From NCBI GenBank assembly GCA_050010755.1, contig JBEKKK010000001.1, positions 608,001-672,000 of the forward strand: a DNA stretch of 64,000 nt. The letters run 5' to 3'. The notes beneath the pieces were generated by a model, which saw only the letters and a program-made list of their open reading frames with translations, made no database searches and was not told where the DNA came from. The position numbers and the translations under genes are program-made. Every line of letters starts with the position of its first letter. The stretch's first letter is position 1. Of the stretch, positions 20,638-58,238 are shown one piece after another. This DNA is from Candidatus Bathyarchaeia archaeon. Its GTDB lineage: Archaea > Thermoproteota > Bathyarchaeia > Bathyarchaeales > Bathycorpusculaceae.

Positions 20638-20830
20638 GGCCCTCGCAAAGCGCACCCGCAACCCAGCAGCTGCAGGACAAAAACGTGGAGAAGAATGAAT
20701 CAAAGGAAACTGCATGCTCAAATAGCGCGCGCTCGTGACGTACTGGTATTTGCGTAGGCAATTTAAGAAAGGCTCCTTATCGTGCTAGAGAGATTTATAA
20801 GATTGGCTTGATTTCTCCATATCGATCAGG

Positions 20831-21187
20831 ATGAAGAGTTACATTAAGATTTATGGTCCGCCTATATTGAAGGCTTTAGATGAATTAGAAAAAATTGCAG
20901 GCGAAATGCCTGAAATTGCTTTCTACTATCACTATATTCTAGGATTCATACCTGTAGGAAAAAGTTCTAGCGCGCCATCTATCGATGAAGAACAACTAGG
21001 TTTAGGAGAAAAGTACGAGGAGAAATCTAAACGTTCTGTGAGCAAATCGGGTTATAGTTTAGGAGACCATGATTTCTTCTTTGAATGGGCAAAAGAACCG
21101 GATGGAGAACAATTGCGCAATTTGATCGAAAAGGTTGAAAATGCATTGACGCCACTCGGATGTAGATATACTATAACTACAAAGTAA
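20831..21187 (+). CDS. Hypothetical protein (118 aa)
   Basis: Clean ORF with a TATA-like TTTATAA about 35 bp upstream; flanked by GCGCGCGC sites. Confidence 0.7.
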   Translation: MKSYIKIYGPPILKALDELEKIAGEMPEIAFYYHYILGFIPVGKSSSAPSIDEEQLGLGEKYEEKSKRSVSKSGYSLGDHDFFFEWAKEPDGEQLRNLIEKVENALTPLGCRYTITTK

Positions 21188-21607
21188 ATTTGTGGAATAC
21201 TAGCGCGCGCTTCTTGATCTACAATACTCAATTCCTAATCTTCTCCAGTTGGAAGTGCGCGATAAACCGACCTTCCACGCGATTCCTTTTTTCTCTATAG
21301 AGAAACGTACAGCGCGCGCTGAAGCCGAATCCCAAACACGAGTCTGCCCTGGATTTCTACAGTTCCCAGTCCTCCTCGGCGAATTTTATTCAACTAGTTC
21401 CGCATTCAATCTTCGCAACTAGTCATGTTCTGCCATCACAGCAGATGTCTTAGGTTCTGAAAGCGCCAAAAACAACATGTCTCTTACGAGTTTCGCAACT
21501 AAGCCAACGGTTCGAACTTCATTTAAGGAAATCTAAGCAATAAAGTTTTTACCTCACTTAATTGATTGAACTCGAATAAATGGAATGAAAGCGGAAATGC
21601 TTGGAAG

Positions 21608-22870
21608 ATGAAAATAAAAGCGATTGTTGGTTTGGCCTTGGTTGCGTTGTTCTTGGTTTGGGTGCTTTACATGAGTGTTCCATCCGCAGTAGTCGATTCT
21701 CATGGAAGCTCGGAATATTCTGCAGAACAGTCTTCAGCTGACTCGTGGCCGATGTTTCACTACGACCTAACTCATACTGGCACCTCAACCTCAACGGCGC
21801 CGAACACAAACCAAACTCTGTGGAGTTATACGACTGGTGGGCCTGTGTATTCCTCTCCTGTCGTTGCTGGTGGCGTGGTGTTTGTGGGTTCACTCGACGA
21901 TGTTGTTTATGCTTTCAACGCTTCGAGCGGAGCGTACGTGTGGGGTTATAGGACTGGTGGGCCGGTGTATTCGTCTCCTGCCGTTGCCGGTGGCGTGGTG
22001 TTTGTAGGCTCAGATGATGATGTCGTTTATGCTTTGAACTCTTCCAGCGGCGCGTATTTGTGGGGTTATAGGACTGGTGGGCCGGTGTTTTCCTCTCCTG
22101 CCGTTGCCGGTGGCGTGGTGTTTGTGGGTTCGGCTGACAAAGCTGTTTATGCTTTGGACGTTGTCAGCGGCGCGTATTTGTGGGGTTACACGACTGGCAA
22201 CGATGTGTGGTCTTCTCCTGCCGTTGCTGGTGGCGTGGTGTTTGTGGGTTCGATTGACGGGAATGTTTATGCTTTGAACGCTTCAACAGGCGCTTACATT
22301 TGGAACTATACAACAGGCTGGAGCTACTCAACTGGCTGGAACTACACGAGTGGCGGGCCGGTATATTCCTCTCCTGCTATCGCTGGCGGCGTTGTCTTCG
22401 TAAGCTCAGACGATGGTAATGTTTATGCTTTGAACGCTTCAACAGCCACTCTCATATGGAGATACAGCACGACCGGCAGTCTGGTGGATTCATCTCCTGC
22501 TGTCGCTGGTGGCGTGGTGTTTGTAGGCTCAGATGACAAAGTTGTTTATGCTTTGGACGTTTCCAGCGGCGCGTATTTGTGGGGTTACACGACTGGCAAC
22601 GATGTGTGGTCTTCTCCTGCCGTTGCTGGTGGTATTGTATATGCTGGATCACTTGACGGCAAGGTTTACGCTTTCGGAGTTTTTACTGCTGAAGGTGGGC
22701 TGCCACGAAGCGCGACATACACTATAATTGCTTTTGCAGGCATTGCAGCAGTTGTAGTCGTTGCAGTCGTGTACTCAAGTATTCACAGGAGGAAAGCGCC
22801 CAAGCCACGAGTCAGGGGAGGCATGCAGCTTCTTGACAGATGTAAGTTGGCTTTGGTATCCGAGATATAG
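21608..22870 (+). CDS. PQQ-like beta-propeller repeat surface protein with signal/TM segment and C-terminal TM
   Basis: WPMFHYD followed by seven SSPxxAGGxVxV ~40-aa repeats. Confidence 0.92.
   Translation: MKIKAIVGLALVALFLVWVLYMSVPSAVVDSHGSSEYSAEQSSADSWPMFHYDLTHTGTSTSTAPNTNQTLWSYTTGGPVYSSPVVAGGVVFVGSLDDVVYAFNASSGAYVWGYRTGGPVYSSPAVAGGVVFVGSDDDVVYALNSSSGAYLWGYRTGGPVFSSPAVAGGVVFVGSADKAVYALDVVSGAYLWGYTTGNDVWSSPAVAGGVVFVGSIDGNVYALNASTGAYIWNYTTGWSYSTGWNYTSGGPVYSSPAIAGGVVFVSSDDGNVYALNASTATLIWRYSTTGSLVDSSPAVAGGVVFVGSDDKVVYALDVSSGAYLWGYTTGNDVWSSPAVAGGIVYAGSLDGKVYAFGVFTAEGGLPRSATYTIIAFAGIAAVVVVAVVYSSIHRRKAPKPRVRGGMQLLDRCKLALVSEI
21830..22670 (+). repeat. Intragenic ~120-bp tandem repeats encoding propeller blades
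   Basis: Near-identical TCTCCTGCCGTTGCYGGTGGCGTGGTGTTTGT units. Confidence 0.9.
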
Positions 22871-23347
22871 AATGGATAAAGGAAACTGGCTGCCCAAGAT
22901 GGTTAAATACAATAAGAAAGCGTTATTTTGGTTATTAAAGCCTGCGATGATCTTTGCTATGAACGCTTTTTAGCCGGGATTGACCACGGTGACGGAAAAG
23001 CTTCGTGGCTGGGTTGTTTTGGGTCTAACATCCTAAACAAAGGCTCGAGCGGCTAATGACTGGAGGTTTTGTTTTTCGCTCGCGTGAAAAATTGTAAATA
23101 AATGGAAAGCCTAGCCCACGAGTGTATTACGACTTGAAGATTGCATGCGACATAATGGAATGCCCATTGCGTTAGCGGGCGCTTTGACTCAAAGAGCAAT
23201 CGGCGACTTCCGAGAATGCGACTGAGCGCTTACTCCTTGATGTTTCTGCGCAACTCTCGTTTAAACTGGTTGAGAAATATTTAAAAGGAAATTGATATTC
23301 TAGCATAGACAACATATCCATGGCGAGAGCTGGGAGCGTGTACAGCA

Positions 23348-38808: not shown

Positions 38809-39032
38809 CTTTCATCTGCTCGTCTATGAGATTTCCTTCTCATATTTTCAGGGTGCGAGCTTCTGATGCTATGTCGAGGTAAAGCAATGCTTTTGCGACG
38901 GGGATTATTACAACCCAGAAGAATATGAGCAGCAAGGGGAATTGTAGGCAAGCGGCGCGAATTTGGTATGCCAAGCTCCTTTGATTACTCGGGCGCGCGG
39001 AATCAAGGCTGCTAGCGGCCATGTTCAAGCGA

Positions 39033-39899
39033 TCACGATTTCGATTTTCTTCTCGAATAGGCATGTTTTCTTACCCAAACGATTGCGACGGCAACGACTG
39101 CAATCACGACAATTATGATTATTATGATTGGAAGAGAAATTGGTGAAGTAGTTATGAGAGAAGTAGTGGAGAACTGGGCGTTGTCAATGTAGACTTCTGC
39201 CTGTTGTAAATTCACGTTTGCTGTTGGAATACCCACCTGTAAGGCGTTGACTTCACCGATAGCACTGTTGTTCAGGTTTGTCTCTTGTATTAGCATTGCA
39301 CCGTTTACCCATAAGGTTGACCATCCATGAGTTGAATCGACGAATCCTCCGGCCGTCACCGTGTACCACGTGTCCAATTTTGGCAGATGAGACGCGGTGG
39401 GAATGCAATGAAAAATTTGGTTCCCATCTCGATAATGCAAGCACCATTCGGGGACTCCGTCAACAAGAGTTATCGCTGCACAGGCAATAGCGTTCCCCTC
39501 TTGCGATCCTCGTAGTCTAAGAAATCTGGTCATTTGGGCAGATCCATTGTTTGTCCATACGGGATCTCCGAAGCTGACAAAATAAACCTCGCAACTGGCG
39601 TATGCAGTTTGCAAAGCGGTGGCAAAATCTTTCTCTACGTAAGCTGAGCCGCCATTCGAAGCAGAGCTGGCGGTGCAATGTAACGAATAATTGTCGCCAG
39701 CAGCAACGATGGAGCTTGAAATGTTGATAGATCCACTCGCGACCACTTGACGGGTCCACAAGCCACCATCAGTGACATCAATGCCTTTGCTGTTTGCCCA
39801 AGTGTCCGAAAACGTTACCGATGAGGCATGTGCTGCCAATACAAGAATTACGATTAAGATGTCAACGATCAGAATGTTTAGCAAATTTTTCATAATCAA
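39033..39899 (-). CDS. Secreted concanavalin-A/polysaccharide-lyase-like beta-sandwich protein with C-terminal TM
   Basis: Signal peptide; GDNYSLHC, LDTWYTV, TLWVNG, VYIDN; TM plus basic tail. Confidence 0.65.
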   Translation of the reverse strand: MIMKNLLNILIVDILIVILVLAAHASSVTFSDTWANSKGIDVTDGGLWTRQVVASGSINISSSIVAAGDNYSLHCTASSASNGGSAYVEKDFATALQTAYASCEVYFVSFGDPVWTNNGSAQMTRFLRLRGSQEGNAIACAAITLVDGVPEWCLHYRDGNQIFHCIPTASHLPKLDTWYTVTAGGFVDSTHGWSTLWVNGAMLIQETNLNNSAIGEVNALQVGIPTANVNLQQAEVYIDNAQFSTTSLITTSPISLPIIIIIIVVIAVVAVAIVWVRKHAYSRRKSKS

Positions 39900-40102
39900 A
39901 ATCTTCCTTAATTATGAATAGCAGGACCTAATTAATAATTTTTTTCTGAAGGAGGCAATTATAAATTGAGCATGAACACGGGCAGCATATGTTTCCTTTG
40001 GATAATGTAAACCTAGATTTGAAACGCTAAAGACGAAGATGTCGGTTTTGGACTGAATAATTCGTAAGTGAAACCGCTCGTGCTCGTCAGTAGGCGCGCG
40101 CG

Positions 40103-40259
40103 TGTGCAGATTGCGAACCCTGTTGAAGAAGAGAAACTCAAACGTGCTATTGTTCAGATTCGGGATTTGGGTTTGGCTTCTCACATTACTGATCCCGGCG
40201 GTGGGGGCTTATCTTCTGCGGTGGGTGAGACGGCGAACAAGTACGGTTGCGGAGCGGTG
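40103..40259 (+). pseudogene. Diverged internal purL fragment bounded by (CG)n runs
   Basis: VQIANPVEEEKLKRAIVQIRDLGLASHITDPGGGGLSSAVGETANKYGCGAV versus purL VQIANPVEEEKLKRAIVQVRDLRLASGITDLGGGGLSSAVGETANKYGRGAV. Confidence 0.9.
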
Positions 40260-40270
40260 GCGCGCGCGCG

Positions 40271-40389
40271 ACAGAACCGCAGCAGGTGTTTTGGGCAAGA
40301 TGGGCATGGCGGCTGAGGTGATAGGTCGCGTGACGCATGCCGAAGGGGTCAAGATTCTTTACAAGAACAAGAAGATTGCTCTGAAGTAA
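40271..40389 (+). pseudogene. Diverged purM 3'-end fragment
   Basis: AEVIGRVTHAEGVKILYKNKKIALK* versus purM AEKVGCVTSGEGVKVRYKNRKIALN*. Confidence 0.85.
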
Positions 40390-40399
40390 CCTTTGCATT

Positions 40400-41767
40400 T
40401 AGTGTGGAAAGCGTTTTAGAACGTTGCATAAGCTATTGTGTTGTGTCTGCAGTCAGTGCCATGTACATTGAGAGGCTCATCGTTGATCCTTCTGAATTTC
40501 CTGTTTCCTGTAAGCTGAAGTCGATGACGTGGCAGGTTGTGTAGTCCATTCGGATCTGCGCTGTCATGCTGAAGGTCGCACTGTTGCCTTGGCTTGTAAC
40601 TTGAAAGTTGTTTGTGGAAATTTCCAGCTTGAAAGTTTTGTAGGTGCCTGCTTGCACAGTGATGTTTTCGATGTCGGCGACTTTGGTGTTCACCGTTCCA
40701 CTTATGTTCATGGTTGAGTTGCTGAAGTTGATCGGAAACTGGTAGGTTTGGCCTACTTGGATTTCTGATGTGTTGAAGAACATAGGGGTCATTGTGTTGC
40801 CCTGAAGTATTGAATAGGCGTTCTGAAGCTCGGACGGACCGTTAGATGTTCCAACCAATTTCCCAGCTTTGTTCATTATCAGTGTGACTGATGTGTCGAG
40901 TGGGATTCCTTCTGCTTCGAGATGTGTCGGCTCGTTGATGGTGTAGTTTTCACCGTCGAAACCCACAACACTCATGTTCATGTTTCCAGTTTCGGTCACT
41001 TGCTGTCCGTTTTCATTCACTGTGGCAGACAGGCTATAGCTGAGGTTTTCTCCCACGTTGAAGCTGAGGCTGTACGGAATTTTCTCCCCTAATCCTTGGG
41101 GAACCGGGGGTATGGATCCAAGTACGACGGCGATGAGCACGGCCGCAACTGCAACAGCCCCTATGAGCACGTACAACTTCTTTCTAGACTTTCCAACAGG
41201 TTCAATAGGTTCAATCGGCGGTTGCGAAATTGGTTCGGGCTCCACAGTTGGCGGAACATCTGAATCTGAAAAAATATTCCATTGCATCAAACGATTCTTC
41301 CCCCATCGAGGAAGACTCCCAGAGTCGTATTTAATGTTTGCCATTTGGCGGGTTCTGCAGCGTTCGCCTGCAAGAACTGTTTGGCGGCACTATTCCTTTT
41401 CGTCTGAAGACGAGCCAAGGCTTGAGAGAAGAATCCTATGGTAACTCGAAAGAGTCAGGGAAGAAAAATCGTGTTTTTTTTTGGTGGGATGCGTCATGCA
41501 ACAACGAGAAATGCGCACGTATATTATCGGGGAAAGGACTTTGCATGACGCACCTTAATCTTATCTTACGATACGAAAAGATTTAATGTTTATGGAAGCT
41601 AGAGGCATCGTTTGGTATCAAAAACAAATTTGCTTCTTGCTGTTTGTCAAATCCCAAAAAATCAGACTTGGCTGAAGCATTAGAGGAAAATTCAGGACGA
41701 GGACCATGACAAACAAGTTTACTATCAAGCCGAAGTAGCGATTGCCTTGATAGTGTGGAAAGCGTTT
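40400..41767. repeat. 17-bp direct repeat TAGTGTGGAAAGCGTTT flanking an inserted gene
   Basis: Identical copies at 40400-40416 and 41751-41767. Confidence 0.8.
40433..41344 (-). CDS. Membrane-anchored protein with Pro-rich N-terminus and beta-rich ectodomain
   Basis: EPEPISQPPIEP, TM helix, ENITVQAGTYKTFK motif. Confidence 0.75.
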   Translation of the reverse strand: MANIKYDSGSLPRWGKNRLMQWNIFSDSDVPPTVEPEPISQPPIEPIEPVGKSRKKLYVLIGAVAVAAVLIAVVLGSIPPVPQGLGEKIPYSLSFNVGENLSYSLSATVNENGQQVTETGNMNMSVVGFDGENYTINEPTHLEAEGIPLDTSVTLIMNKAGKLVGTSNGPSELQNAYSILQGNTMTPMFFNTSEIQVGQTYQFPINFSNSTMNISGTVNTKVADIENITVQAGTYKTFKLEISTNNFQVTSQGNSATFSMTAQIRMDYTTCHVIDFSLQETGNSEGSTMSLSMYMALTADTTQ

Positions 41768-44429: not shown

Positions 44430-44432
44430 GTT

Positions 44433-45248: not shown

Positions 45249-45609
45249 CTTGAAAATTCTTCCAACAGGGATAAAGTGTTATCCCAAACAAACTCGCGTT
45301 ATATTTCGATTGGTCGACTAACTTAGAAAGAGCTCACACCCAATTGCCGAAATACAGAAGCACGATTATGGAGCGCGCGCACTAAGGTTCCAGTCAAGCT
45401 GAAAAGCACGCGCTAAATACACCTACGGCCACAACGGACACAAGCGCGCGTTCTTTGTTTCAAGTTACTTGTCCATGTATGGCTGAAGTAGTTGTGCATG
45501 GACATGCTTGAACTTACACGTCCGTAACGTGTGCATTGAACTCTAATACGGATTTCAAATTCACAAACCAGTTATTCTGGAGATGTAATCATGTTCCTAG
45601 TGACCCGAA

Positions 45610-46029: not shown

Positions 46030-46237
46030 TTCTCAGCGCGCACTATGAATGTACAAAACTAAATCTTCTTGCATCGTCGCAGCATCGTTCCGTCGTTTCC
46101 ACAGATTCATTTACTCTCTTGAGTTTGGGGGTAAAGTTTTATCCCAACCCAACCCAAAAAAAGAGAAAAGAAGGAAGGTTGGGACCGCGCGCACTTGCCC
46201 ATTCGAGATTATAGTTCGAGTTTCGAGGACGTCAAAA

Positions 46238-47671: not shown

Positions 47672-47753
47672 CATTCATATAGAGCGCGCGCAAGGATGAA
47701 AAGCGCGCGCTAGTATCCATAATAGATCACTAACAAACCGTTTCTCTTTTTTC

Positions 47754-47972
47754 CTAAGACAAGTTTCCAACAGAAATCAACGAATCAAGTTCTTTACTGG
47801 AAACGCCTCTCTTCTGATTCTGATTGTAACTCAAACCTAACTCAAGAAATATAAGGTGAACGAATTTCTCGTATGGAATAGGCCAGTGTTTTTTAGCAAG
47901 TTTGAGAATGTCCTGAATCTTTTTTCTCCGTTGCTCTTCAAATTTCTTGCTCCAATCTTCAAAATCACTCAT
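47754..47972 (-). CDS. Small hypothetical protein, last gene of the MGE operon
   Basis: ATG overlaps the end of the upstream gene; MSDFEDWSKKFEEQRRKK. Confidence 0.6.
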   Translation of the reverse strand: MSDFEDWSKKFEEQRRKKIQDILKLAKKHWPIPYEKFVHLIFLELGLSYNQNQKRGVSSKELDSLISVGNLS

Positions 47973-48606: not shown

Positions 48607-48610
48607 TTCT

Positions 48611-49006: not shown

Positions 49007-49021
49007 TGTGCTTCACCCACC

Positions 49022-49945
49022 TCATATTGCGTTAAAATCGTAGTTGATGTAACTGAGAAGTTTTATCACCGTATCGACATGGTGTTGTTTTATCTGGGAA
49101 TCTCCCTTGATGATTGCTGTCATTTTGACAAGAGAGATTAACTGATTCATTGAACGGTAAGGTAACGCTTCTGTTCTTTCTCCTAATGGTTCTGCATATC
49201 CTCTAAGCTGTAACAAAAGCTGAGAATCACACTTGATAGGTTGAGGGTTTCGGTTAATGACATATCGAAAATCCTTCAGAGAATCAGGTTTTTGTAACGC
49301 GATATTCTTCAGAATTTGGTCGATTGTTTCTTTACTGTGAACAAAACTGTAAGGAATCAGTCTTGAGAGAAAACCATCTTTCTTCCATCTCTCCGCAAAT
49401 TGACTATAACTTGCAATTGTTGTTGCAGTTATGAGACCTGCTCTTACCAAAAATTTAGGGTGAAACTCTAAACCGTAATCGTCAAGGTTGCCCACTCCGT
49501 CACTTATCATCTGTCGGAATATTGAGATTGTTGTCCCGTATGTTTTTCTTCCATGACTGTGAGTTATCACTTGAAAATCAGGTATTGCAAGAAATCGCTT
49601 TTCTCCTTTCTCAACGCCTTTGAGAAATTCCACAAGAAACTTGGGCGTTATGTCGTCCGTGTATGTTACGAAGTCCAAGTATTTCTTTCTGAGGGTGTGC
49701 ATGGTCATTAAAAGCCGACTTTTACCTGTTCCAGCTTTGCCTAGAATCAAAAGGCTCAATGGATGATAATCTAAAGAGTTGATGGGTATATTTTGAAAGG
49801 CTGATTGAAGAATCAGGTTTATCGTGAACGTGCCCACATGGTCAACTATGTTAAGTGTATCACTCTCAACAGTGGGTAACCCTGATGTGAGGTGTAACCT
49901 CTTTTGAGGCTGATACACCTTTTCCTTTGATTGTATCGCTTTCAT
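49022..49945 (-). CDS. AAA+ ATPase, MCM-like helicase domain of MGE type
   Basis: Walker A LLILGKAGTGKS, Walker B variant LAIPDF, sensor-1 ITATT, Arg finger GFLSRL, sensor-2 PYRS. Confidence 0.72.
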   Translation of the reverse strand: MKAIQSKEKVYQPQKRLHLTSGLPTVESDTLNIVDHVGTFTINLILQSAFQNIPINSLDYHPLSLLILGKAGTGKSRLLMTMHTLRKKYLDFVTYTDDITPKFLVEFLKGVEKGEKRFLAIPDFQVITHSHGRKTYGTTISIFRQMISDGVGNLDDYGLEFHPKFLVRAGLITATTIASYSQFAERWKKDGFLSRLIPYSFVHSKETIDQILKNIALQKPDSLKDFRYVINRNPQPIKCDSQLLLQLRGYAEPLGERTEALPYRSMNQLISLVKMTAIIKGDSQIKQHHVDTVIKLLSYINYDFNAI

Positions 49946-50092
49946 AGAGTTAATACACCTTTCTGTGAATATTGCAGTAGAGGCATAGCCTTTAAAGACT
50001 GTTTTAACACATTGTTAAGTTAGTGAGAAACCTTGAGAATGAACAGGGGACACGAAAAGAAGGTTCATGATGCTCAGGGCGAAAGGTCAAAA

Positions 50093-50446
50093 ATGAAAAA
50101 AATAGACAACCAACAGCGTGTATGGATGTTGATTGGTGAACGTGGAAACTTCACGTTTCCTCAATTGCAGAAGGCCACTGGTCTATGTAGACAGTCTCTT
50201 GCGAAAATTCTAAGAGAATTGGAAAAGAATGGCATGATTGTTAAGGATACGGTTAAGCCTTGGGAAAAATTTGAGCACTTAAAGATTTTTGATGGTTTTC
50301 TGGGCGCTTCGATGCAAGCTTTAATGCAGTCTTCAACGAATGAATTGACAGATACTAGAAGTGCAGTTGAGGCTTGGTTTTTGAGACTTGTTTCGGTCAA
50401 ACCTCAGCATGTTGGTGAAGTTGTTTACAGGATTGCTAAAACGTAA
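50093..50446 (+). CDS. Winged-helix (MarR/ArsR-like) regulator
   Basis: FTFPQLQKATGLCRQSLAKILRELEKNGMIVK; divergent from the ATPase operon. Confidence 0.75.
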   Translation: MKKIDNQQRVWMLIGERGNFTFPQLQKATGLCRQSLAKILRELEKNGMIVKDTVKPWEKFEHLKIFDGFLGASMQALMQSSTNELTDTRSAVEAWFLRLVSVKPQHVGEVVYRIAKT

Positions 50447-51464
50447 CAATTCTTGGATTCCATGAATCTCTTTCATTTCTCAGATACATGGCAAGCAGTA
50501 GAGCCTCTTCGTTAATCAGGGTCTCGATTTCTTGCTGTTCCCCTCTTCTAACTCTTGGAAGAACTATTTTATTCTCGAAATATTGATTCAAACTTTTAAC
50601 GAAACTAAGTGTTTGAAAGTCTTTCAAATATTCTCTTTTTCCTTTTCTGTTTGCTGAGAAATCTTCTTTCTTAACGGTAAAATCTTGTTTGTGAAGGTTG
50701 CCACAGTATTCAATTATGAAATCATCCACTAAATGGCGATAGAGTTCTTGGAAGTCACAGATTAGGCTAGGCTTTCCTTTTGCTATGCTGTGCAAGAATC
50801 CCAGATAAGGTTCAAGCTTTGCTTTGATTAGTGCATACTGAACCTTCCACGATAGAATCTCATAGCCCAAATTGAAGAGGTTGTTTATTCCATCGTAAGC
50901 CTTGAATGTTTTTCTAGAATCAGGTCTGAGAGAGTAAGAGAACAAACCAAATATTTGAGCAAAATAATTTTCTGAGTAGTGGCCTTCAATGCTCATTAGT
51001 CTAGTTCTGAGTTTTGCGTTATCCTCAGCATCTAAATTCTTTATTTTTTCCACAACTGAATAATCATGTTTTCTTAATCCGTATTTGCTGAGAACTTGAT
51101 TTTGTCCTTCAAGCTTAGAGAGAACGAGTTGTTTAGCTATTTGTTTTCCTTTCTGAGCGTTCAATGCTTCATACTGAGAAATCCTAGTTTTAACGTGGCT
51201 ATCATCATCTAAAGTTCTGAGCATAGCAACAGGTTTTCCTTTCTGAGTTAGAAACAAACAGTCTATTCCCCAGAATCCGCAACAGGCTAATGCTCCAGAA
51301 GAAATTGTGTTTCCGCTTTTGATTTTGATTTCGTCTATGAGGTTTTCAAACAGTGGATACCTGTCTGTTTGTCCTTCTCTGTTTTTGACTGTGAAGCAGC
51401 CTTTTTCCATTCCCAAATAAGAGCCGAAGCCTTCCAGAGCTATCTTTACGGTTTTAGTCTTCAT
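50436..51464 (-). CDS. cas1: Stand-alone Cas1 integrase (casposase-like)
   Basis: GFGSYLG N-terminus; TRISQY; LMSIEG (Glu), INNLFNLGY, EPYLGFLH (His), SLICDFQELYR (Asp/Glu); no cas2 or array nearby. Confidence 0.95.
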   Translation of the reverse strand: MKTKTVKIALEGFGSYLGMEKGCFTVKNREGQTDRYPLFENLIDEIKIKSGNTISSGALACCGFWGIDCLFLTQKGKPVAMLRTLDDDSHVKTRISQYEALNAQKGKQIAKQLVLSKLEGQNQVLSKYGLRKHDYSVVEKIKNLDAEDNAKLRTRLMSIEGHYSENYFAQIFGLFSYSLRPDSRKTFKAYDGINNLFNLGYEILSWKVQYALIKAKLEPYLGFLHSIAKGKPSLICDFQELYRHLVDDFIIEYCGNLHKQDFTVKKEDFSANRKGKREYLKDFQTLSFVKSLNQYFENKIVLPRVRRGEQQEIETLINEEALLLAMYLRNERDSWNPRIVTF

Positions 51465-51582
51465 TTCTTTCTCCTTCTACGTTAATAAGGCGAGAATGTG
51501 ACTAATATATACCAATAGAAGAATCCTCTAATCTAACTAAATCAGATTCTGTTCGATCTAAATAATTTCTCTACTAACAATT

Positions 51583-51981
51583 CTAGAACTGTGCTCCACT
51601 GTAGAAATATTCAGCGCGTGCGCTTGTGGACGAAACTACTATGTCCAGATTGTACCATTTTGGTGCAGAACTGACATTTTGTAACAAAACAATGTAATCT
51701 CCTAGAGGGATGTTGCGCAGAAATTGAGTTGAAACATTCTGATGGGTAACTCCATCCTGAGCTATGATTTCTAAGGTGTAAACTCCATGTGGATAGGAAC
51801 GCGGAAGCCATGTTGAAAAATACGTAACCATGACAGTTTCGGGAGATTCTACCTTGAGTCCTCCTTCTAAAACACTGATATGAATTTGGTGCTGTGGTAC
51901 CAGTGGTGCAACAAATATCAGTAACGCAATAATTGTGACGACTACTATTGGCATTGCCAAGCGAAGAACCTTTAATGCCAA
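51583..51981 (-). CDS. Small membrane-anchored hypothetical protein
   Basis: N-terminal TM and beta-rich remainder. Confidence 0.6.
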   Translation of the reverse strand: MALKVLRLAMPIVVVTIIALLIFVAPLVPQHQIHISVLEGGLKVESPETVMVTYFSTWLPRSYPHGVYTLEIIAQDGVTHQNVSTQFLRNIPLGDYIVLLQNVSSAPKWYNLDIVVSSTSARAEYFYSGAQF

Positions 51982-52234
51982 AGTTGTTTCTTCCTGAACC
52001 TATGATTAGCCGTTCTCAGAAATAAACCTAAGTGCGTTACAAGGAAATAATTTATTGTGTACGGTGATTGTCTAATCATTGATTTGAGAGACTATCTAAA
52101 GTCATATGTTGAAAAGCTTCGAGATGCGCGCAACACCGAAGCTAGAAGGAATTTTGAGAAACGATTTGACTATCTTAGTTAAGTCTCTCTTTGGGGTTGG
52201 GTTGGGGGTAAAGTTTTATCCTAAAGAAGCAACG

Positions 52235-52381
52235 CGACACACACACCACGCCACCCACAACTACAACCAGAAACACTGACACACTAACACACACTGAGAC
52301 CGATACCGATACCCACCGATACACACAGAGAGACCGGCACACACACTAACACACACTCTAACACACACTCTAACACACACT
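52235..52381 (+). repeat. CA-rich low-complexity tract
   Basis: ACACACTCTAACACACACTCTAACACACAC and similar, next to the GGGTAAAG motif. Confidence 0.8.
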
Positions 52382-52560
52382 GTTTTTCCCCTATTTCCCG
52401 GAAGATCTAACCGGGAAAATAAACGGGGAAGAAAAGGGAAAAAGGTTTTAGTAAAACTAATCCCTATTTGGTCCATCCATCGGGACAGGTATGGAATTTT
52501 CTTTCACAAATCCTTTATAAGGCGATAGGCTGATTCTACAGTTGGAGGAAAGGAGTTAGG

Positions 52561-54849
52561 TTGTCTAGGAAGACTTCTTCGGTTGTATTACTGTTTTTGC
52601 TTCTAATAAGCGCGTTAGTGGTGGCGTATAAGAGTCGGCCAGCAAGTGCGGGTTCTGTAACCGTGAGTGTTCCCGGGACAGCTGGTCAAAATCCTCCTCC
52701 AGATTCTTGGGCTGATTCAGGCATTTCTCTTTCTTCTGGTGACACTGTCTCTATCACTGCGACAGGTCGAGTGAGCTGGGATGGGGGTTATGATTGGGCG
52801 GGTCCAGATGGGGACCCTTCTTGGCCTTCTTCAAGTGGGTTTGAAAATCCTATCTTGCCGGGGGCACCAGTTGGAGCGCTAATAGCCAAGATAGGTGACG
52901 GGCCAATCTTTCTTGTTGGAAGTGGACCTACCCCCGCCAATGGAGAAGGAGAGCTTATCTTCGCTGTAAACGATGAGAATGGCTCCAACTACAACAATGT
53001 TGGCAACTTCACTGTCACCATAGTGATGTCCGTGCCAACCTGTGTCGTCACCTTCACCGAGTCGGGCCTACGCCTACCTGATGGAGCAAACTGGGTCGTC
53101 ACGCTCAACGGCCCTGATGTGGATGAACCATTGTCGTCAAGCACGAACAAAACAGTATTCAATGTACCCCCTAACGTCTATACTTTTTCTGTCACTCCAA
53201 TTGCAGGTTATACCATTTCGCCAGCATCGGGCAGCATAACGGTCAACGGTGCAGGAATTGTGGAGTTTGTTACATTCAGCCCCGTCGTGAGTTTGAAAGG
53301 AATTTCAAGCACGATAACAGGTGCGACAAGTCTTGTTGCGAATACCAACTTCACGTTTCAACAGAATTTCTATTTGTACACGGGCAACAAGGATGCACAA
53401 AACCCGGAAGTGTATTGGTGTCAGAATTGTATGGAAATGAATTTGACGGCCGGCAAGGGGATTTATTCTCGTGCGAGCATGTTTATTTGGTCATGCTATT
53501 GGGAGGGGAACGATATTTATGTCGACAAGAGCAATCCGTTCGACGAATGTCCGAACTATTGGGTAAATATTCCAGGTGACAGCATGGTTTTCAAGTCTTA
53601 TATTGGCACTGACAATAAGCTGCACATGGAAAATGACATAGCTTGGTTTTCGTGGGTATCCAATAAGCTGGTGTTAACCAGTAGCGCCTATATAGCCTGC
53701 GAGTTTATCAGTACCACTTGGAATATTGTCGCTCCCAATTTTGTTATTGTTGGGCCTGCTGGCGGAGGACAAGCTGATTTCAGTAGTGGGTCGGGCACTG
53801 TTACCTGCGAAACAACAACAAATATTGGGGGCACATGGCAGACGGCATTGAACCTCGCTATTGTTGGGTTCCACCAATCAACAGGAGAAAGTTCGACAGG
53901 ATTAATGTTTTTCACAGCTCAAGGACAACCTGCTGGAGGTTTTGGGTATCAATCCGGGGCACAGGATCAAGGGATCTTTTTTGGAATTGACCCTGATGGC
54001 CACTCAACCCAAGCACCTATGGTCAGCAGTTTAGGTAATCCTCCAAAGACCCTTGTTGTCACTGCTCAGTGCCCAGTGTATCTTGACTTGTTTGACGAAC
54101 TCGGAAATTGCGTGGGCTATAATGCGACTTCAGGAACTGTTGATATCCAGATCGACAACGGTGTTTGGATTTCGAACCAGACTTTGCTGGTTTTTGATCC
54201 TTCCGGCACTTATCATCTTGATGTGACTGGTTCGGGTAATGGCACCTATGAGCAGGAAGTATTTTGGCAGGGTACTACTGGACCAACCATTACTGTGCTA
54301 GACTTCAACAGTACCATAACAGAAAACGAAACGCAGGCCTATGTCGTTGGAGCCGAGGCGAATGTGGCCCCGATAAACATTGTGTCTTCCAAAACTGTCG
54401 TGGGCCAAGGCTTTGGTATGCAAGTGAATGCGACAGTTGCAGATTTAGGAGGACCCAACGCGACTTCCGACGTCTCATTGTATGCTAACGGAACCCTAAT
54501 AGGAACCCAGAGTGTCCTTAACGTGTCTGGATGGAACTCGACAACTGCCTGCTTCACATGGAACACCACTGGCATCGCCTATGGAAACTACACTCTCTGG
54601 GCTACTACTGCAAACAACAATAATTGCACAGGCGGCATGGTGACAGTCTCAATTCCGGGCGACATCACGGGTTCGAAGGGTGTGTCCGATGGCAAGGTTG
54701 ACATGCGAGACATAGCAGTAATTGCTAGGTGTTTTGGCTCTAATCCCGGCGACATCAACTGGAACCCCAACGCGGACATCAACGGCGATGGCACGGTCAA
54801 CATGAGAGACATCGCATTAGTGGCCAGACAATTCGGAAACCACGTATAG
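52561..54849 (+). CDS. Secreted multidomain protein: LecA/PA-IL-like lectin, thermopsin-like region, CARDB/Ig domain, C-terminal dockerin
   Basis: WADSGI..GDTVSITATG..GALIAKIG..LIFAVND; FTESGL; YWCQN; GDIT..DGKVDMRDIA..FG..WNPNADINGDGTVNMRDIA. Confidence 0.8.
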   Translation: MSRKTSSVVLLFLLLISALVVAYKSRPASAGSVTVSVPGTAGQNPPPDSWADSGISLSSGDTVSITATGRVSWDGGYDWAGPDGDPSWPSSSGFENPILPGAPVGALIAKIGDGPIFLVGSGPTPANGEGELIFAVNDENGSNYNNVGNFTVTIVMSVPTCVVTFTESGLRLPDGANWVVTLNGPDVDEPLSSSTNKTVFNVPPNVYTFSVTPIAGYTISPASGSITVNGAGIVEFVTFSPVVSLKGISSTITGATSLVANTNFTFQQNFYLYTGNKDAQNPEVYWCQNCMEMNLTAGKGIYSRASMFIWSCYWEGNDIYVDKSNPFDECPNYWVNIPGDSMVFKSYIGTDNKLHMENDIAWFSWVSNKLVLTSSAYIACEFISTTWNIVAPNFVIVGPAGGGQADFSSGSGTVTCETTTNIGGTWQTALNLAIVGFHQSTGESSTGLMFFTAQGQPAGGFGYQSGAQDQGIFFGIDPDGHSTQAPMVSSLGNPPKTLVVTAQCPVYLDLFDELGNCVGYNATSGTVDIQIDNGVWISNQTLLVFDPSGTYHLDVTGSGNGTYEQEVFWQGTTGPTITVLDFNSTITENETQAYVVGAEANVAPINIVSSKTVVGQGFGMQVNATVADLGGPNATSDVSLYANGTLIGTQSVLNVSGWNSTTACFTWNTTGIAYGNYTLWATTANNNNCTGGMVTVSIPGDITGSKGVSDGKVDMRDIAVIARCFGSNPGDINWNPNADINGDGTVNMRDIALVARQFGNHV

Positions 54850-55235
54850 CGCACAGCGCATACAAGTGAATTTGTCGCGTGGCGAGTTGAAAACAAACTC
54901 CACTTTTGGGGCAAAATAGATTAACTCTGGGGAAAATACAAGCGATCTAACTGCCGGAAAAATAATGGATCAAGATCTTCTCCATTGTTTTGTCTTCTTT
55001 CCGAAGTGTCCGCCCTCCTCAATGTGGTAGTATCCGAGTTGGTTCCTGCCACGTCTCTTCTTGGCCTTGATCTCCGGAGCGTCTGGGAACTCTAGATGGA
55101 CGTTGGCTTGCGTGCCTATCAGCTCTTCAGGGGTAAAGTTTTGTCTTCTTCTCTCTCTAAAAAAACCAAATAAAAGAACACACGCGCACGCGTGAATAAT
55201 TTCTTTCAATCAGTCACTATCTCTCTGTGTCTGTC

Positions 55236-56159
55236 TCAGCCACTTAGAGCCTGCATTTCTCTGATTTTGTGAATCATGCTAAGTATCTCTGTGCAATACT
55301 TGTTGACGAAAGGTTTCAAAACCCCGATTCTATTCATATCTTTTTCAAAAGGTGAGAAAACATGTGCACATGCGTCTCCGTGTTGTCTTATTTCTCCCAA
55401 GAATCTAAGGAAGTCTTCCTTGTCTCTGTAGAAAGATTCATTATATCTTCTAAACTCATCGAATTTTGTTCTCATGTTAGGAATTAAACGGTTCAGACTG
55501 TGATGCCTGTTATCTTTGACTGAATAATAGAGGTCTATTTCTTCTTCTCCAAATTTCTGTTGAAGCAAGTCAACTATTAGATTTTCAAATATTTTTCTTA
55601 ATAATACCAATGTTGCATTTGGAAGCTTATAGTAATAAGCGCGATTCGTCTCCATTGCTAAATCAGAATAGAAACCCTCTTCAAACTTGGTCACAACTAA
55701 CAAATCAGAGCTAATCAGGATTTCTCCTTTCTCATTTTTCGGTTCAACATCCATTGTCCCCCGCTCAATCTCATCAAATATGTTTTCTGTTTCTTTGCCA
55801 AAAATATCTTCCATATCTGTGTCTCTAATGGTTTTGTTTAGAAACAAGTGTATTGGCATTCCCTCAGAAATCGCATATCCGTTAACTAACTCTCTTGGAA
55901 GAATAAGAGTGCGCGTTTCACAAGTTTTTCCATTGTCTAGGTAAGATTGCTTCACATCTAGTTCAAAAGTATAATCCTTAGAGATAACACGTTTTATTTG
56001 CCCGTTCCTATCCAGTAGCTCTGCAACTGTGCCAGTTATATCTGGTCTGTTACCAACGTAAAGTTGAAAGCGTCTCCAAATATTATCATCATCAAGGTCA
56101 ATCCCGAATAGAGGTCTATCTGATAAAAGCTTGATTATCTTGACAGTTTCATATGGCAT
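55236..56159 (-). CDS. Hypothetical protein with C-terminal HEPN-like (DUF4145-type) domain
   Basis: ETNRAY..LPNATLVLLRKIFENL and IRQHGDACAH. Confidence 0.65.
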   Translation of the reverse strand: MPYETVKIIKLLSDRPLFGIDLDDDNIWRRFQLYVGNRPDITGTVAELLDRNGQIKRVISKDYTFELDVKQSYLDNGKTCETRTLILPRELVNGYAISEGMPIHLFLNKTIRDTDMEDIFGKETENIFDEIERGTMDVEPKNEKGEILISSDLLVVTKFEEGFYSDLAMETNRAYYYKLPNATLVLLRKIFENLIVDLLQQKFGEEEIDLYYSVKDNRHHSLNRLIPNMRTKFDEFRRYNESFYRDKEDFLRFLGEIRQHGDACAHVFSPFEKDMNRIGVLKPFVNKYCTEILSMIHKIREMQALSG

Positions 56160-56502
56160 TCTCTAACCCGAAAACAATCAGGGATTTTTTGCTTATTTGA
56201 TTTGTCCATGCATGCCTTCTTTGGGCATTAGTCGAAAGCGCGCGCTTGTCTAGTGCGTTCTTATGACCTATGTCATGATGGTAGAAAACCCAAATTCAGA
56301 TGGAAAATTTTATAGGAAAAGCACCTGTAAAATGGCCATGTAGGCGCCGCGCGCGAGATACCGAAACTCGGAAACGCGCGGCGCCAGTAAGGTTTTTTTG
56401 TTATTATTGATTTCAAAAACTCGCCAATCATTATCAGATTACACGCCAATGCGATTAAATCGAATATGCCCATTCAAAGGAAGCTGAAGCCGATTCTGAT
56501 AT

Positions 56503-56826
56503 TTAAGGTTTCCTTATAAAGCGACCCGTCTTGAGGTCTCTGTAACGGTCTTGAGAGCTACCTTTCACAGTGACAACTTCTTGTCTCCATGTTACAGCAA
56601 CCCTGCTTTCACGAGGGGCTGTAGTTCTCCTTTCAACAAAAACGGGAATTCCAAGTTTTCTAGCTTCAACTCTCAACGCTTCATTCTGTCCGTACGTGTC
56701 AAGCCATTTTCGACCAGCCCATGAAGAGAAAGCCAACTTCAAGTGGGGCAAATTTCTGATTCTGTCAACATCAACGACCCGCTCGAACCGTTCAAAACAC
56801 TCTGGAAACTTATCCACGGTTACCAC
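56503..56826 (-). CDS. Small basic MGE/virus-like protein
   Basis: GGAGGT RBS immediately upstream; C-terminal YRDLKTGRFIRKP motif. Confidence 0.65.
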   Translation of the reverse strand: MVTVDKFPECFERFERVVDVDRIRNLPHLKLAFSSWAGRKWLDTYGQNEALRVEARKLGIPVFVERRTTAPRESRVAVTWRQEVVTVKGSSQDRYRDLKTGRFIRKP

Positions 56827-56943
56827 CTCCTAAAAGTATATTGTGCCCTCTTCTTTCCAGACCGATGAAACGAGCGGAGATGTCTCTCGCTAGAGCGCAT
56901 TCAAACGAAAAGCAGATATTCCAAAAAATGCAAACGGTTCAAC

Positions 56944-58041
56944 ATGAAAAGTCAAGTTGAACTTGATGGCATAGTTTATGGAAGGCTCGTTGATGACCTT
57001 AGTAAACTTGAATCTGCCCCTCTTCTTAGGATTACGTTGGTTGAGGCAGTCAAACTTGGCGAACTTATTGGCTTTATCAGAGAATTTGTCCCAGAAGCAT
57101 TCTTCATGTTCGTTGTTCATCGTGTATTCAAGAAAAGCTTCAAACCAGTCCCAGAAGCCCCAATAGCGTCTTGGGAAGACAGAATGCAAAAAGGTTTTCG
57201 AGAGCAGGGTAGTGTAACTGGTGAGTATGACACAGGGTGGGAGCTTATTAATCCCGCCGTTTTTGAGGGACTACCCTTTGGAACCAATCCGAAGGACCTG
57301 CTTGCCTCCTTGAAAGAGAAGCATCAATTCCTGCTACAAACACTCAAAAAAATGCGAAAAGGAACATTCCCGCAACTTTGCTGCATAATTTTGTCGCCAC
57401 ATTGGGAAAAAATGGAAAAAATCGCAGTGAAAGACGCAAAATCAAAGAAGTCGTGTTGGATTCCCGCAAAGAAGTTTATTGCGGAATTTCGTACCGAATC
57501 CAATTCTCAGGGTATTGAGGTTCTGACCTTTCAAGGATTCTGCAATAAGTATCAGAAAGAAATACTAGACAAAGATTTCAGATATGAATGGTCAGAGTAT
57601 CAACGGAAGTTATATTTGGATTTCATGAAACACTTTCCTATGATGGCGTATTCTCTCTGCCATGATGACTACCTCGCATACAAAGACTACCAGAATAAAG
57701 CCGAAGTTGACCTAAATGACGGAAAATATCCGGAAGCAATAGCTATGGATTGCAAAGCACTTGAACACGTTTTGCGGGTTTACTCTTTCATGAAAACCAT
57801 GGAAGAAGCGCCTGAAAAAGAACTTGGCTGGTTTTATCAATCCCTCAAAGCGGATATCATGAAGGAATTCGGCGAGATATATTGCAAGGACTTAGAGCTC
57901 ATTCTATCTTATAGACCTCATGCGGTTCACGCAAAAATCATAAAACAAGAACCGACAGAAATTCACGCACAGGAAGTCCATGACCGAGTTAATCTATTTT
58001 GCAAGACCTTCTTTCACAGAAAATGGAATCTAAGGATTTAG
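56944..58041 (+). CDS. Hypothetical protein with C-terminal HEPN domain (possible defence effector)
   Basis: KAEVDLNDGKYPEAIAMDCKALEHVLR followed by YRPHAVH (Rx4H). Confidence 0.65.
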   Translation: MKSQVELDGIVYGRLVDDLSKLESAPLLRITLVEAVKLGELIGFIREFVPEAFFMFVVHRVFKKSFKPVPEAPIASWEDRMQKGFREQGSVTGEYDTGWELINPAVFEGLPFGTNPKDLLASLKEKHQFLLQTLKKMRKGTFPQLCCIILSPHWEKMEKIAVKDAKSKKSCWIPAKKFIAEFRTESNSQGIEVLTFQGFCNKYQKEILDKDFRYEWSEYQRKLYLDFMKHFPMMAYSLCHDDYLAYKDYQNKAEVDLNDGKYPEAIAMDCKALEHVLRVYSFMKTMEEAPEKELGWFYQSLKADIMKEFGEIYCKDLELILSYRPHAVHAKIIKQEPTEIHAQEVHDRVNLFCKTFFHRKWNLRI

Positions 58042-58238
58042 TGCGCGCGCTCCATCTGCACTTGTTTTGTCTGTTTTGTTTGCGTCGAGGTGTAGAAAGC
58101 AAGAGAGGTATTAACAGTATAAGAGAGAGAGAAAAAGGGTAAAGTTTTATCCAAACCGTGCGCTATGTCTTCCTAAACCAAAAAAAGAAATATAACGCGC
58201 AAACTGCGATGCGTTGGCCAAGTGTTGGCGGTGATGTT

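Follow-up and report, generated by a model that had tools for sequence, protein, structure and literature searches.

The eight-letter palindrome GCGCGCGC was found in intergenic regions of an uncultured peat archaeon (Bathyarchaeia) in hundreds of copies. As it occurs almost only where the gene content differs from that of relatives, it has the appearance of a flexible-genome joint, and GCGCGCGC may well be the sequence at which the flexible part of the genome is joined in this Bathyarchaeia genus, arising through cutting and joining of DNA in variable islands. The window referred to below is the whole 64,000-nucleotide stretch that was analyzed, and G000 is its source genome (93% complete).

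The genome-wide count in G000 was 253 copies, approximately 9-fold above the first-order Markov expectation. Counting both strands gave 506 occurrences against 54.6 expected from the first-order model, an over-representation as in iterated octamer palindromes of the HIP type. The motif was mostly (GC)4 and sometimes (GC)5, and the run lengths in G000 were distributed as 152 (7 nt), 169 (8 nt), 66 (9 nt), 19 (10 nt), 1 (11 nt) and 0 (12 nt or longer). The bulge at 8 nt was peculiar to GC runs and was not seen for five other dinucleotides. The 8-nt runs began with G in 147 cases and with C in 22, and all 19 of the 10-nt runs began with G. GCGCGCGC is a specific sequence, not a generic repeat. 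The sequence logo of the 253 sites was limited to (T)A-GCGCGCGC-T(A); the preceding base was A in 53% and the following base T in 53%, and nothing was conserved more than 2 nt out on either side. The left and right flanks were independent, with 69 A..T pairs compared with approximately 71 expected from the flank frequencies. Beside 202 perfect intergenic copies, there were 556 one-off variants (170 expected), and internal transitions numbered 129 (25 expected); the runs lack conservation, and their decay resembles that of neutral DNA.

These features bear on the possibility that the runs are a mutational by-product of GC slippage or biased repair in unconstrained DNA, variable DNA being the least constrained. 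We consider this origin quite unlikely, as a length maximum at 8, a cut-off at 11 and a bias to G starts are not signatures of slippage, and the other dinucleotides behaved differently. It draws support from the abundance of decayed and shorter variants, from conserved spacers free of runs, and from some other genomes, such as G018, G030 and those of the genus g81, in which tracts were longer or G-first and C-first 8-mers occurred in nearly equal number.

All 11 runs of at least 8 bp listed in the preliminary description were present in the window, as CGCGCGCG at 56348 and as GCGCGCGC elsewhere, along with the shorter runs at 38993, 45444, 46036 and 46186 (Table 1). Shuffling of the window (n = 100) gave a mean of 0.60 GCGCGCGC, and 0 of the 100 shuffles reached 11. 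Alternating CG runs of at least 6 nt were absent before position 20725, in agreement with the described lack of runs in the first 20 kb, and by the ORF list all runs of at least 8 nt were indeed outside intact genes, with those at 40094 and 40260 touching only short gene-fragment ORFs. The partly conserved flank also held true, ATACTAGCGCGCGCTT at 21197 being the reverse complement of 47701-47716. The statement that many runs lie within ~50 bp of a stop codon applied to just 4 of 12 runs (21203, 47684, 47703 and 58043); GCGCGCGC starts at both 40260 and 40262. Independent X3 contigs covering 38001-42680 and 44822-58000 showed no difference from the window, nor did the X4 pieces spanning 40094, 40260, 56238 and 56348. 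The motif belongs to the whole genome and to the genus and is not specific to the window.

Table 1. Runs, gene fragments and neighboring features located in the window.
Feature	Position	Strand	Remarks
Segment without counterpart in the collinear region of G003	18158..23090		Comparison with congener G003
GCGCGCGC run	20725..20732		87 nt past stop of ABC-transporter ATPase gene 19927-20637; within 18158-23090
GCGCGCGC run	21203..21210		15 nt past stop of small ORF 20831-21187 (no Pfam family)
GCGCGCGC run	21312..21319		101 nt from the 21203 run; upstream of PQQ beta-propeller gene 21566-22870
Segment of ~2.9 kb	38809..41730		Absent from congeners G002 and G003
7-nt run GCGCGCG	38993..38999		Within inserted segment 38809..41730
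GCGCGCGCG run	40094..40102		Left end of purL fragment; purL homology begins 1-2 nt later
purL fragment, 157 nt	40103..40259	+	76% identity to own purL (42909-43063), 82% to purL of congener locus L001
GCGCGCGCGCG run	40260..40270		Right end of purL fragment; homology stops at ...GGAGCGGTG directly before
Fragment: 3' end of AIR-synthase-like gene and purS promoter spacer	40303..40420	+	By homology
GCGCGCGC run	45373..45380		124 nt past purQ stop, where synteny with five congener loci ends
7-nt run	45444..45450		One-off variant GCACGCGC between this run and the 45373 run
7-nt run CGCGCGC	46186..46192		Adjoins short repeat 46106-46169, which matches many congener places
Two GCGCGCGC runs, 11 nt apart	47684..47710		12 and 31 nt past stop of winged-helix gene 47099-47671
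Cas1 gene	50436..51464	-	PF01867, 1.1e-49
GCGCGCGC run	56238..56245		78 nt upstream of start of minus-strand gene 55236-56159
Hairpin, GGCGCCGCGCGCG and complement, then T7	56343..56400	+	-30.7 kcal/mol, z = -2.69; terminator-like
GCGCGCGC run	58043..58050		1 nt past stop of gene 56944-58041

The association with variable gene content was strong when the source genome was compared with its congener G002. Intergenic regions of G002 harbored a run in 11 of 469 syntenic cases and in 167 of 867 cases at a synteny break or accessory gene (Fisher p = 5e-22). Long spacers behaved in the same way: among those of 101-400 nt, runs were present in 2 of 109 syntenic spacers vs 81 of 397 others, which also argues against the mutational by-product. 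DNA collinear with G000 held 4 of the 254 intergenic G002 runs, compared with 207 of 1000 random intergenic positions. Runs are thus concentrated at accessory-gene junctions and missing beside conserved gene pairs. The description of the runs as marking accessory junctions was borne out as an association, but not as a systematic rule, because a run at the filled site accompanied just 21 of the 102 simple indels between syntenic genes (some of them artefacts of crude gene calls), and runs also followed core genes such as purQ. Among these 102 indels, a run was found in both junction spacers in 3 and at the empty site in 10; runs are not obligatory at insertions. Variable DNA could also simply derive from a run-rich source.

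The enrichment of runs at the ends of homology was modest, approximately 3-fold, for paralogs and orthologs alike. Paralog endpoints carried a run in 59 of 1852 cases, compared with 1.05% of intergenic bases. Runs at the ortholog homology end numbered 18 in G002 (5.6 in shuffles) and 12 in G000 (4.2 in shuffles). Among 554 breakpoint-containing ortholog flanks, the nearest run (109 flanks in G002 and 81 in G000) never lay deeper than 9 nt within the region of homology. A test of separate flanks, itself confounded, gave no boundary excess of runs. Genes side by side in a G000 island corresponded to blocks on five G002 contigs, and runs separated these blocks; a cassette common to both genomes had a perfect or decayed run at the matching end in each. 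In some islands, a run stood between nearly every gene.

Several junctions were exact. Inside the segment lacking from G002 and G003, two runs delimit the purL fragment exactly (Table 1). In these two congeners, the AIR-synthase-like gene abuts purS-purL-purQ with gaps of 15 and 25 nt; X4 showed a weak contig joint from 38665 to 41754 (side 22). The neighboring fragment at 40303..40420 matched L010 at 84% identity and the copy in the window itself (38722-38812) at 77%. At the equivalent of 18158..23090, G003 carried a (GC)5 run 1 nt past a stop codon, where homology ends. In a 1-kb alignment at purQ, a run overlapped the stop codon in L002 and followed it after 18 nt in L001 and after ~280 nt in L004. 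A paralogous block began both at the 58043 run and at the run G000:C1:948844. Outside the window, a fragment of the window gene 47965-48654 was located between two runs (G000:C1:790540-790873), a dockerin fragment began 2 nt after a run, and an in-frame domain deletion had a run at its joint. In four collinear alignments, the run took the place of a 4-11 nt patch and altered the length by 0 to +5 nt overall. Such gain and loss by patch replacement rather than unit expansion, and runs placed exactly at both ends of a fragment, also speak against a mutational by-product.

We then weigh whether the run would be the binding site (TAGCGCGCGCTA) of a dimeric protein, acting as an insulator, a silencer of acquired DNA or a termination factor. 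On this account, accessory genes would carry the site in their spacers, and its coincidence with junctions would arise only because whole transcription units move. In G000, 214 of 253 copies (85%) were outside genes in a genome that is 81% coding, and 256 of 299 copies in G002, whereas 10 of 12 other GC-rich 8-mers tested had just 0-36% outside genes. Within 0-50 nt upstream of starts, runs were avoided, and 0-30 nt past stops they were approximately 2-fold enriched. These positions, the strict 8-bp palindrome with its flank preference, the runs between nearly every island gene, and one gene family with a run directly upstream of a TATA-like box are in line with a protein site; the flank preferences and the excess past stops would suit such a site too. 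The distances to gene starts or stops were, however, not fixed, and T5 tracts after stops were equally common with a run (19/83) and without (379/1928). Further points against a protein site are that congeners do not conserve the sites and a large halo of decayed copies exists, that the two flanks vary independently, and that runs delimit fragments of genes and mark the joint of an in-frame domain deletion. The winged-helix genes, tested as two families of 17 and 10 members, were near runs no more than by chance, and the same held for every other family of at least 5 members, variable surface proteins excepted. Judged from the sequence features, a protein-binding role is unlikely.

Returning to GCGCGCGC as a probable joint, we infer a joining reaction and an enzyme for it. 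Within variable islands, GCGCGCGC bounds single genes, small blocks of genes and pieces of genes, and a lineage-specific cut-and-join activity would either add the self-complementary 8-mer at joined ends or cut and rejoin at the 8-mer. Copies of GCGCGCGC travel with the flanked cassette, and with no selection holding them in place they decay through point mutation. Many identical GC-only palindromes would allow any two to pair in either orientation, so that further insertions, deletions and swaps would end at palindromes. The two forms of this reaction correspond to the cassette recombination site and the end-joining scar proposed in the preliminary description; both fit the junction examples, and the data do not separate the two. 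In the enzyme search, none was found and each candidate tested failed. Cas1, PolX, Ku, C5 methylase, RAYT and TnpB were not supported as the responsible enzyme.

The distribution across genomes was patchy and burst-like. All four congeners searched were also rich in GCGCGCGC, and at least 100 copies were present in 29 of 301 Bathyarchaeia genomes, unevenly even inside genera: counts ranged from 11 to 346 in g112 and from 1 to 512 in g81, and were 41 and 300 in g106. This pattern disagreed with that of Cas1, to which the preliminary description had attributed a possible capture of DNA. A solo Cas1 (Table 1) would integrate DNA at the palindrome and duplicate it, in a casposon-like manner. The two runs flanking the purL fragment resemble a target duplication, the Cas1 gene is in a variable region, and a crude scan of G000 detected no CRISPR array. 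Nevertheless, G002 with 460 copies had only a Cas1 fragment, none was found in G018 (227 copies), and G008 and G012 carry Cas1 yet have 3 and 4 copies. In addition, no run was within 200 nt of a Cas1 fragment elsewhere in G000. CRISPR and casposon systems are marked by a regular repeat-spacer array or by terminal inverted repeats plus a target duplication of 14-15 bp; the runs did not fit this description, as the crude scan revealed no array and the gaps between runs were irregular. Capture mediated by Cas1 is therefore extremely improbable.

Several known systems resemble the runs in part. REPs are imperfect folding palindromes of 20-40 nt with a conserved GTAG head, moved by a Y1 transposase. 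Like the REP/BIME and RAYT systems of enterobacteria and pseudomonads, the runs are high-copy extragenic palindromes biased to the 3' side of genes, lineage-specific in sequence and number, and tied to genome plasticity. Unlike REPs, the unit is 8-10 bp, the flanks are not conserved, neither a 20-40 nt palindrome of stem-loop type nor a head motif occurs, and Y1_Tnp/RAYT (PF01797) was not found in G000 (93% complete). Integron arrays and CALINs (attC, IntI) are similar in that unrelated single genes form an array with one site copy separating each, in that cassettes common to genomes differ in order, and in that an integrase gene borders one island, here a tyrosine recombinase at G000:C1:1350-1373 kb. 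A single-gene cassette array with a site after each gene was seen in two islands but does not hold genome-wide, attC-like folded sites of 55-140 nt were lacking, genes lie in both orientations, and most simple insertions have no site. The suggested integron/REP-like nature of the site was thus not upheld. Relatives of the island recombinase (E up to 1e-20) occurred in 5 of 40 other genomes and did not track the run counts; the total integrase count correlated with the run count in 41 related genomes (Spearman 0.56, not corrected for kinship).

HIP1 of cyanobacteria (GCGATCGC) is likewise a hugely over-represented, lineage-specific, GC-rich 8-bp palindrome, but HIP1 lies inside genes too. A HIP-like, restriction-linked origin, in which a methyltransferase or restriction-modification system for GCGCGC(GC) either drives or maintains the motif or cleaves incoming DNA at it, leaving imported pieces that end there, would agree with a motif shaped like a restriction site and with the N4/N6 methylase genes in G000, where PF01555 matches were present. 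A run-rich island encodes an MvaI/BcnI-type system; its methylase family presumably points to CCWGG or CCSGG specificity, and this methylase gene has an internal stop. We regard this origin as very unlikely: in contrast to HIP1, the runs are 85% non-coding, relatives do not conserve the motif, and C5 methylase (PF00145) was not found in G000 (93% complete). The ends of the 40103-40259 fragment also did not coincide with pre-existing sites in purL of relatives. The precedent remains the tie of HIP1 to orphan methylases in cyanobacteria (PMC4390886), an article in whose text neither 'GCGCGC' nor 'archaea' occurs.

Microhomology-mediated or homology-facilitated illegitimate recombination and filler DNA at end-joining junctions also join unrelated sequences at a short GC-rich stretch, with small patch replacements gaining few bases and gene fragments seemingly captured at joints. 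Known joints use microhomology at hand or variable filler, and Ku was looked for and not found. Literature searches returned nothing in print on the GCGCGCGC motif, and none of the papers returned describes one constant 8-mer shared by hundreds of joints. DNA uptake sequences (Neisseria DUS, Haemophilus USS) are short lineage-specific motifs at about one per few kb; enrichment of DUS in the core genome has been reported, in contrast to the depletion of runs from conserved, syntenic DNA here.

It is conceivable, though rather doubtful, that some Bathyarchaeia possess a gene-exchange system, in which a horizontally spreading enzyme writes one universal 8-bp palindrome, (GC)4, at DNA ends or cuts and rejoins there. 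If so, single genes, domains and fragments would be inserted, deleted, inverted and swapped between chromosomes, as in an integron without attC hairpins or a natural restriction-ligation cloning, and the system would appear in bursts, differing even among species of one genus.

The earlier suggestion of a Z-DNA-prone site appeared at odds with the position of the runs. Z-DNA tracts would be expected at supercoil-stressed promoters, and the density of runs was lowest in divergent regions (0.40 per kb), compared with 0.54 in tandem and 0.76 in convergent regions, with no fixed distance to genes. The run at 56348 (CGCGCGCG) was unlike the other runs, forming part of one arm of the hairpin at 56343..56400, the only site that fits an intrinsic terminator, for which a hairpin followed by a T run or, in archaea, a T tract alone would be expected.

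All of the alternating CG/GC tracts (runs) named in the preliminary description were present in the window sequence. The eight-letter palindrome GCGCGCGC, mostly (GC)4, was observed 11 times in the window against a mean of 0.60 in dinucleotide-preserving shuffles, with at least 11 copies in 0 of 100 shuffles. The enrichment held genome-wide, as the genome of the window, G000 (2.19 Mb, 47.7% GC; window at C1:608001-672000; placed in Bathyarchaeia by the purL gene of the window), contained 253 copies, or 506 on both strands, compared with 54.6 expected under a first-order Markov model, and AGCGCGCG/CGCGCGCT were the top over-represented 8-mers under a sixth-order model. Run lengths in G000 showed a bulge at 8 nt and ended at 11 nt, every other dinucleotide behaving differently, and the first letter of the 8-nt runs was G in 147 cases and C in 22. 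The runs were preceded by A and followed by T (53% each), with a weaker T and A one position outward; no flank conservation was seen beyond these two positions per side, and left and right flanks varied independently. The motif is a specific octamer, not a microsatellite. Misassembly does not account for the runs either: the X3 contigs, which come from an independent peat run, matched 38001-42680 and 44822-58000 with 0 differences, as did pieces from X4 over 40094, 40260, 56238 and 56348, the comparison leaving out the runs at 20725-21312 and 58043.

The preliminary description had set these tracts, as marks of accessory-gene junctions, against a run-free first 20 kb. Indeed, the first 20.7 kb held no CG alternation of 6 nt or longer, and the blocks 3-6817, 11785-14410 and 16132-18056 of this part were collinear with the congener G003 and not with the other three congeners. 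All runs of at least 8 nt up to 58050 were located in segments lacking a collinear congener counterpart. The 1.525 Mb fetched from the congener G002 (approximately 65% of that genome) contained 299 runs, 256 of them outside genes, and its intergenic regions were classed by 855 reciprocal best hits with a median amino-acid identity of 85.8%. When only spacers of 101-400 nt were compared, a run was present in 2 of 109 syntenic spacers and in 81 of the 397 others (p = 1.3e-7). DNA collinear with G000 held 4 of 254 intergenic runs of G002, compared with 207 of 1000 random intergenic positions.

Window segments without collinear congener counterpart (window coordinates) and classes of G002 intergenic region with their run content
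Feature	Position or number	Compared with	With run	Runs per kb
Non-collinear window segment	18158-23090	G003		
Non-collinear window segment	38809-41730	G002 and G003		
Non-collinear window segment	45267 to at least 58000 (query end)	congeners		
Intergenic, syntenic gene pair	469 regions		11 (2.3%)	0.28
Intergenic, break between two core genes	121 regions		28.9%	1.15
Intergenic, core next to accessory gene	413 regions		16%	0.79
Intergenic, accessory next to accessory gene	333 regions		19.8%	1.02

The runs were strongly clumped (mean 2.32, variance 7.51 per 20-kb window), the densest tenth of the 20-kb windows holding 91 of 244 runs. Among 102 simple events with one to eight extra genes between syntenic neighbours, some of which were gene-calling artefacts, any run was detected in 21 filled sites, a run in both junction spacers in three, and a run in 10 empty sites. 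Of 1852 unique endpoints of paralog homology in intergenic DNA, 59 fell at runs, compared with 1.05% of the intergenic bases, an enrichment of only about 3-fold. Since most simple insertions or deletions lacked a run, endpoint enrichment was about 3-fold and the runs were clumped, the motif belongs to certain variable DNA and not to every insertion.

Several exact junctions were found. The stretch 40103-40259 is a piece of purL: homology extends from the run at 40094-40102 up to the one at 40260-40270, with 82% identity to a congener purL versus 76% to that of G000 itself. Next to it comes a copy of the 3' end of the adjacent gene together with the purS promoter spacer (84% to a congener versus 77% to the own copy). 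Elsewhere in G000, a 315-nt piece of the window gene 47965-48654 was flanked by a run on each side, a dockerin-coding fragment started 2 nt past a run, and a paralog lacking a domain of about 1 kb had an in-frame run at the joint. The branched-chain-type ABC transporter operon of G003 ended after the permease gene with a (GC)5 run 1 nt past the stop codon, where its window counterpart goes on into ATPase genes. In 554 ortholog flanks containing a breakpoint, the nearest run was never located further than 9 nt into the homologous sequence (none of 109 run-bearing flanks in G002, none of 81 in G000), and runs at the homology end numbered 18 versus 5.6 after shuffling in G002 and 12 versus 4.2 in G000. 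A boundary test that took the two flanks separately was confounded by query ends and gave no excess. Two contig joints, 38665 to 41754 in X4 (side of 22) and 46151 to 52195 in X6 (side of 27), were set aside as too short-sided, with relatives or repeats as a possible source. Runs as the joint of a DNA cut-and-join process fit best with the analysis as a whole. The 3' end of an AIR-synthase-like gene occurred three times within 38780-41800 (intact gene end at 38808, fragment at 40303-40389, remnant at about 41720-41738), suggesting repeated insertions at one site, and the fragments of this gene were nearer to congeners than to the own copy.

Two islands of G000 (C1:936-990 kb and 1350-1373 kb) carried a run between nearly every gene, and their genes were unrelated, including a P-type ATPase, PhzF, old yellow enzyme, an aminotransferase, an MvaI/BcnI restriction-modification pair and TIR-domain proteins. 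Adjacent small genes of the 936-990 kb island had orthologs of 82-94% identity spread over five G002 contigs, in surroundings likewise rich in runs and with runs between the blocks. One cassette had a run downstream of its stop codon, at 16 nt in G000 and at 5 nt in G002, past which the DNA was unrelated; another kept its end run in G002 and had a decayed AGCGTGC at the same place in G000. Run-to-run gaps shorter than 200 nt numbered 27 against about 6 expected, in keeping with junctions that consist of two runs separated by a short spacer. The MvaI/BcnI-family endonuclease gene (C1:958628-960373; locus L183:13628-15373) had as its neighbour, likewise within the 936-990 kb island, an N4/N6 methylase gene whose reading frame shows an internal stop. 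The other island contained two CAP12/Pycsar-type TIR-domain genes (C1:1351735-1354254; locus L081:3735-6254) and started beside a tyrosine recombinase gene (L081:836-2134). We also noted a non-coding repeat of about 390 nt (C2:143192-143602 and eight more copies, e.g. L081:13830-14205; at least nine copies at 70-88% identity), which opens with a CG run immediately before a TTAAATAAT box and closes in a T-run. No Rfam match and no convincing ORF were found in it, and it may be an RNA gene cassette.

Intergenic DNA of G000 contained 556 one-off variants, where 170 were expected, beside 202 perfect copies, and internal transitions prevailed among the variants (129 versus 25 expected). By our estimate, copies that arise steadily and then decay neutrally would give a ratio of about one to two decayed to each perfect copy. 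In four collinear alignments with homology to either side, a patch of 4-11 nt was replaced by a run, the net change being 0 to +5 nt. Judged from these alignments, patch replacement resembles one local event more than mutation in steps or slippage of repeat units; a mutational origin of the runs is possible, at lower odds than a joint. The joint itself might take two forms. Exchange between pre-existing identical palindromes would explain the arrays, the carriage of runs with cassettes and the paired runs. Alternatively, a self-complementary octamer might be added at broken ends before joining, which would account for fragments that end in runs and come from a source gene lacking the site, for the patch replacements, and for the G-first form of even length, as would be expected from the same extension at both 3' ends.

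Positions relative to genes were examined with a home-made ORF and codon-usage caller, a crude one that gave 81% coding, by which 214 of the 253 copies of GCGCGCGC in G000 were outside genes. Ten of 12 other GC-rich 8-mers tested were outside genes in 0-36% of cases, and the two nearest variants, AGCGCGCT and CCGCGCGG, in 60-67%. Run density was higher in convergent spacers (0.76 per kb) than in tandem (0.54) and divergent ones (0.40). After normalisation for available positions, runs were rare 0-50 nt before start codons, about 2-fold enriched 0-30 nt after stops and flat elsewhere; G002 showed a similar pattern with a weaker post-stop excess. Seven genes ended in TAG|CGCGCGC. That the runs serve protein binding is possible, with lower odds than the joining of cut DNA. 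T5 tracts after stops were equally frequent with a run (19 of 83) and without (379 of 1928), and 56343-56400 was the only run site with a true hairpin followed by a T-run. This perfect GC-rich hairpin (-30.7 kcal/mol) with T7 has a bacterial-style terminator shape in an archaeon, and no plus-strand gene lies directly upstream. Adjoining a 7-nt CG run, a short repeat at 46106-46169 (GGGGGTAAAGTTTTATCCCAACCCAACCC...) had dozens of matches in G002-G004 at 85-100% identity. The Rfam search over the window detected one tRNA and nothing else.

The preliminary description had linked the runs to Cas1 among other roles, a link that found no support, as the window Cas1 (50436-51464, minus strand; PF01867, 1.1e-49) does not track run counts across genomes. 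No CRISPR array was detected in G000 by a crude scan, congeners carried many short Cas1 fragments (e.g. nine matches in G003), and the window Cas1 may be solo or casposon-type. PolX (C1:1196345-1196527, 574-aa frame) was rejected as the joining enzyme: within the genus it was found only in G000, and not in four congeners. In G000, no Ku, C5 methylase, TnpB or Y1/RAYT transposase was detected. An origin linked to restriction or methylation is likewise possible, and again less probable than a cut-and-join process. G000 carries the island integrase, but relatives of this gene do not track run counts. Total tyrosine recombinases rose with run count (Spearman 0.56 in 41 related genomes, uncorrected for kinship), a correlation that may only reflect mobile-DNA load. 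The 20 largest multi-copy families of G000 and G002 included no transposase, and variable beta-helix/dockerin surface proteins were the only family near runs above chance (9 of 26). The winged-helix gene beside 47684/47703 had a run nearby in one of 10 relatives. Alba chromatin-protein genes were multi-copy, with four in G000 (e.g. C1:534363-534728) and five in the fetched part of G002.

Integron, REP/RAYT and pdif-module exchange types are known from bacteria. On defining features, the motif falls short of REP/RAYT, integron attC/IntI, HIP1, CRISPR or casposons, uptake sequences and terminators, and its working is most like an integron or CALIN array, or a microhomology/filler joint. If the joint reading is right, a minimal mechanism for exchanging cassettes would join the three bacterial types named above. 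A single 8-bp joint for gene turnover, if real, would make the question of how the flexible genomes of Bathyarchaeia are built testable through an enzyme co-varying with run counts. For practical use, the runs serve as a cheap marker of variable islands and rearrangement points in these genomes. The papers found to pair GCGCGCGC with archaea contained nothing on the motif by title or abstract, supplementary files being outside the scope, and those listed for Bathyarchae- with palindromes and intergenic DNA nothing relevant; the text of the HIP1 paper (PMC4390886) contained nothing on the motif.

GCGCGCGC was found in 168-646 copies in all four congeners searched, and in 0-7 copies in most genera of the same family. 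The Bathyarchaeia, an abundant and uncultured group, have large flexible genomes. Across 301 Bathyarchaeia genomes at least 80% complete, which as relatives are not independent samples, we counted at least 100 copies in 29, taken as raw counts. Copy number varied widely within genera, with 11-346 in g112, 41 and 300 in g106, and 1-512 in g81. G-first and C-first octamers were nearly equal in number in another compared genome, G018, and in several g81 genomes, so that their tracts may differ in kind.
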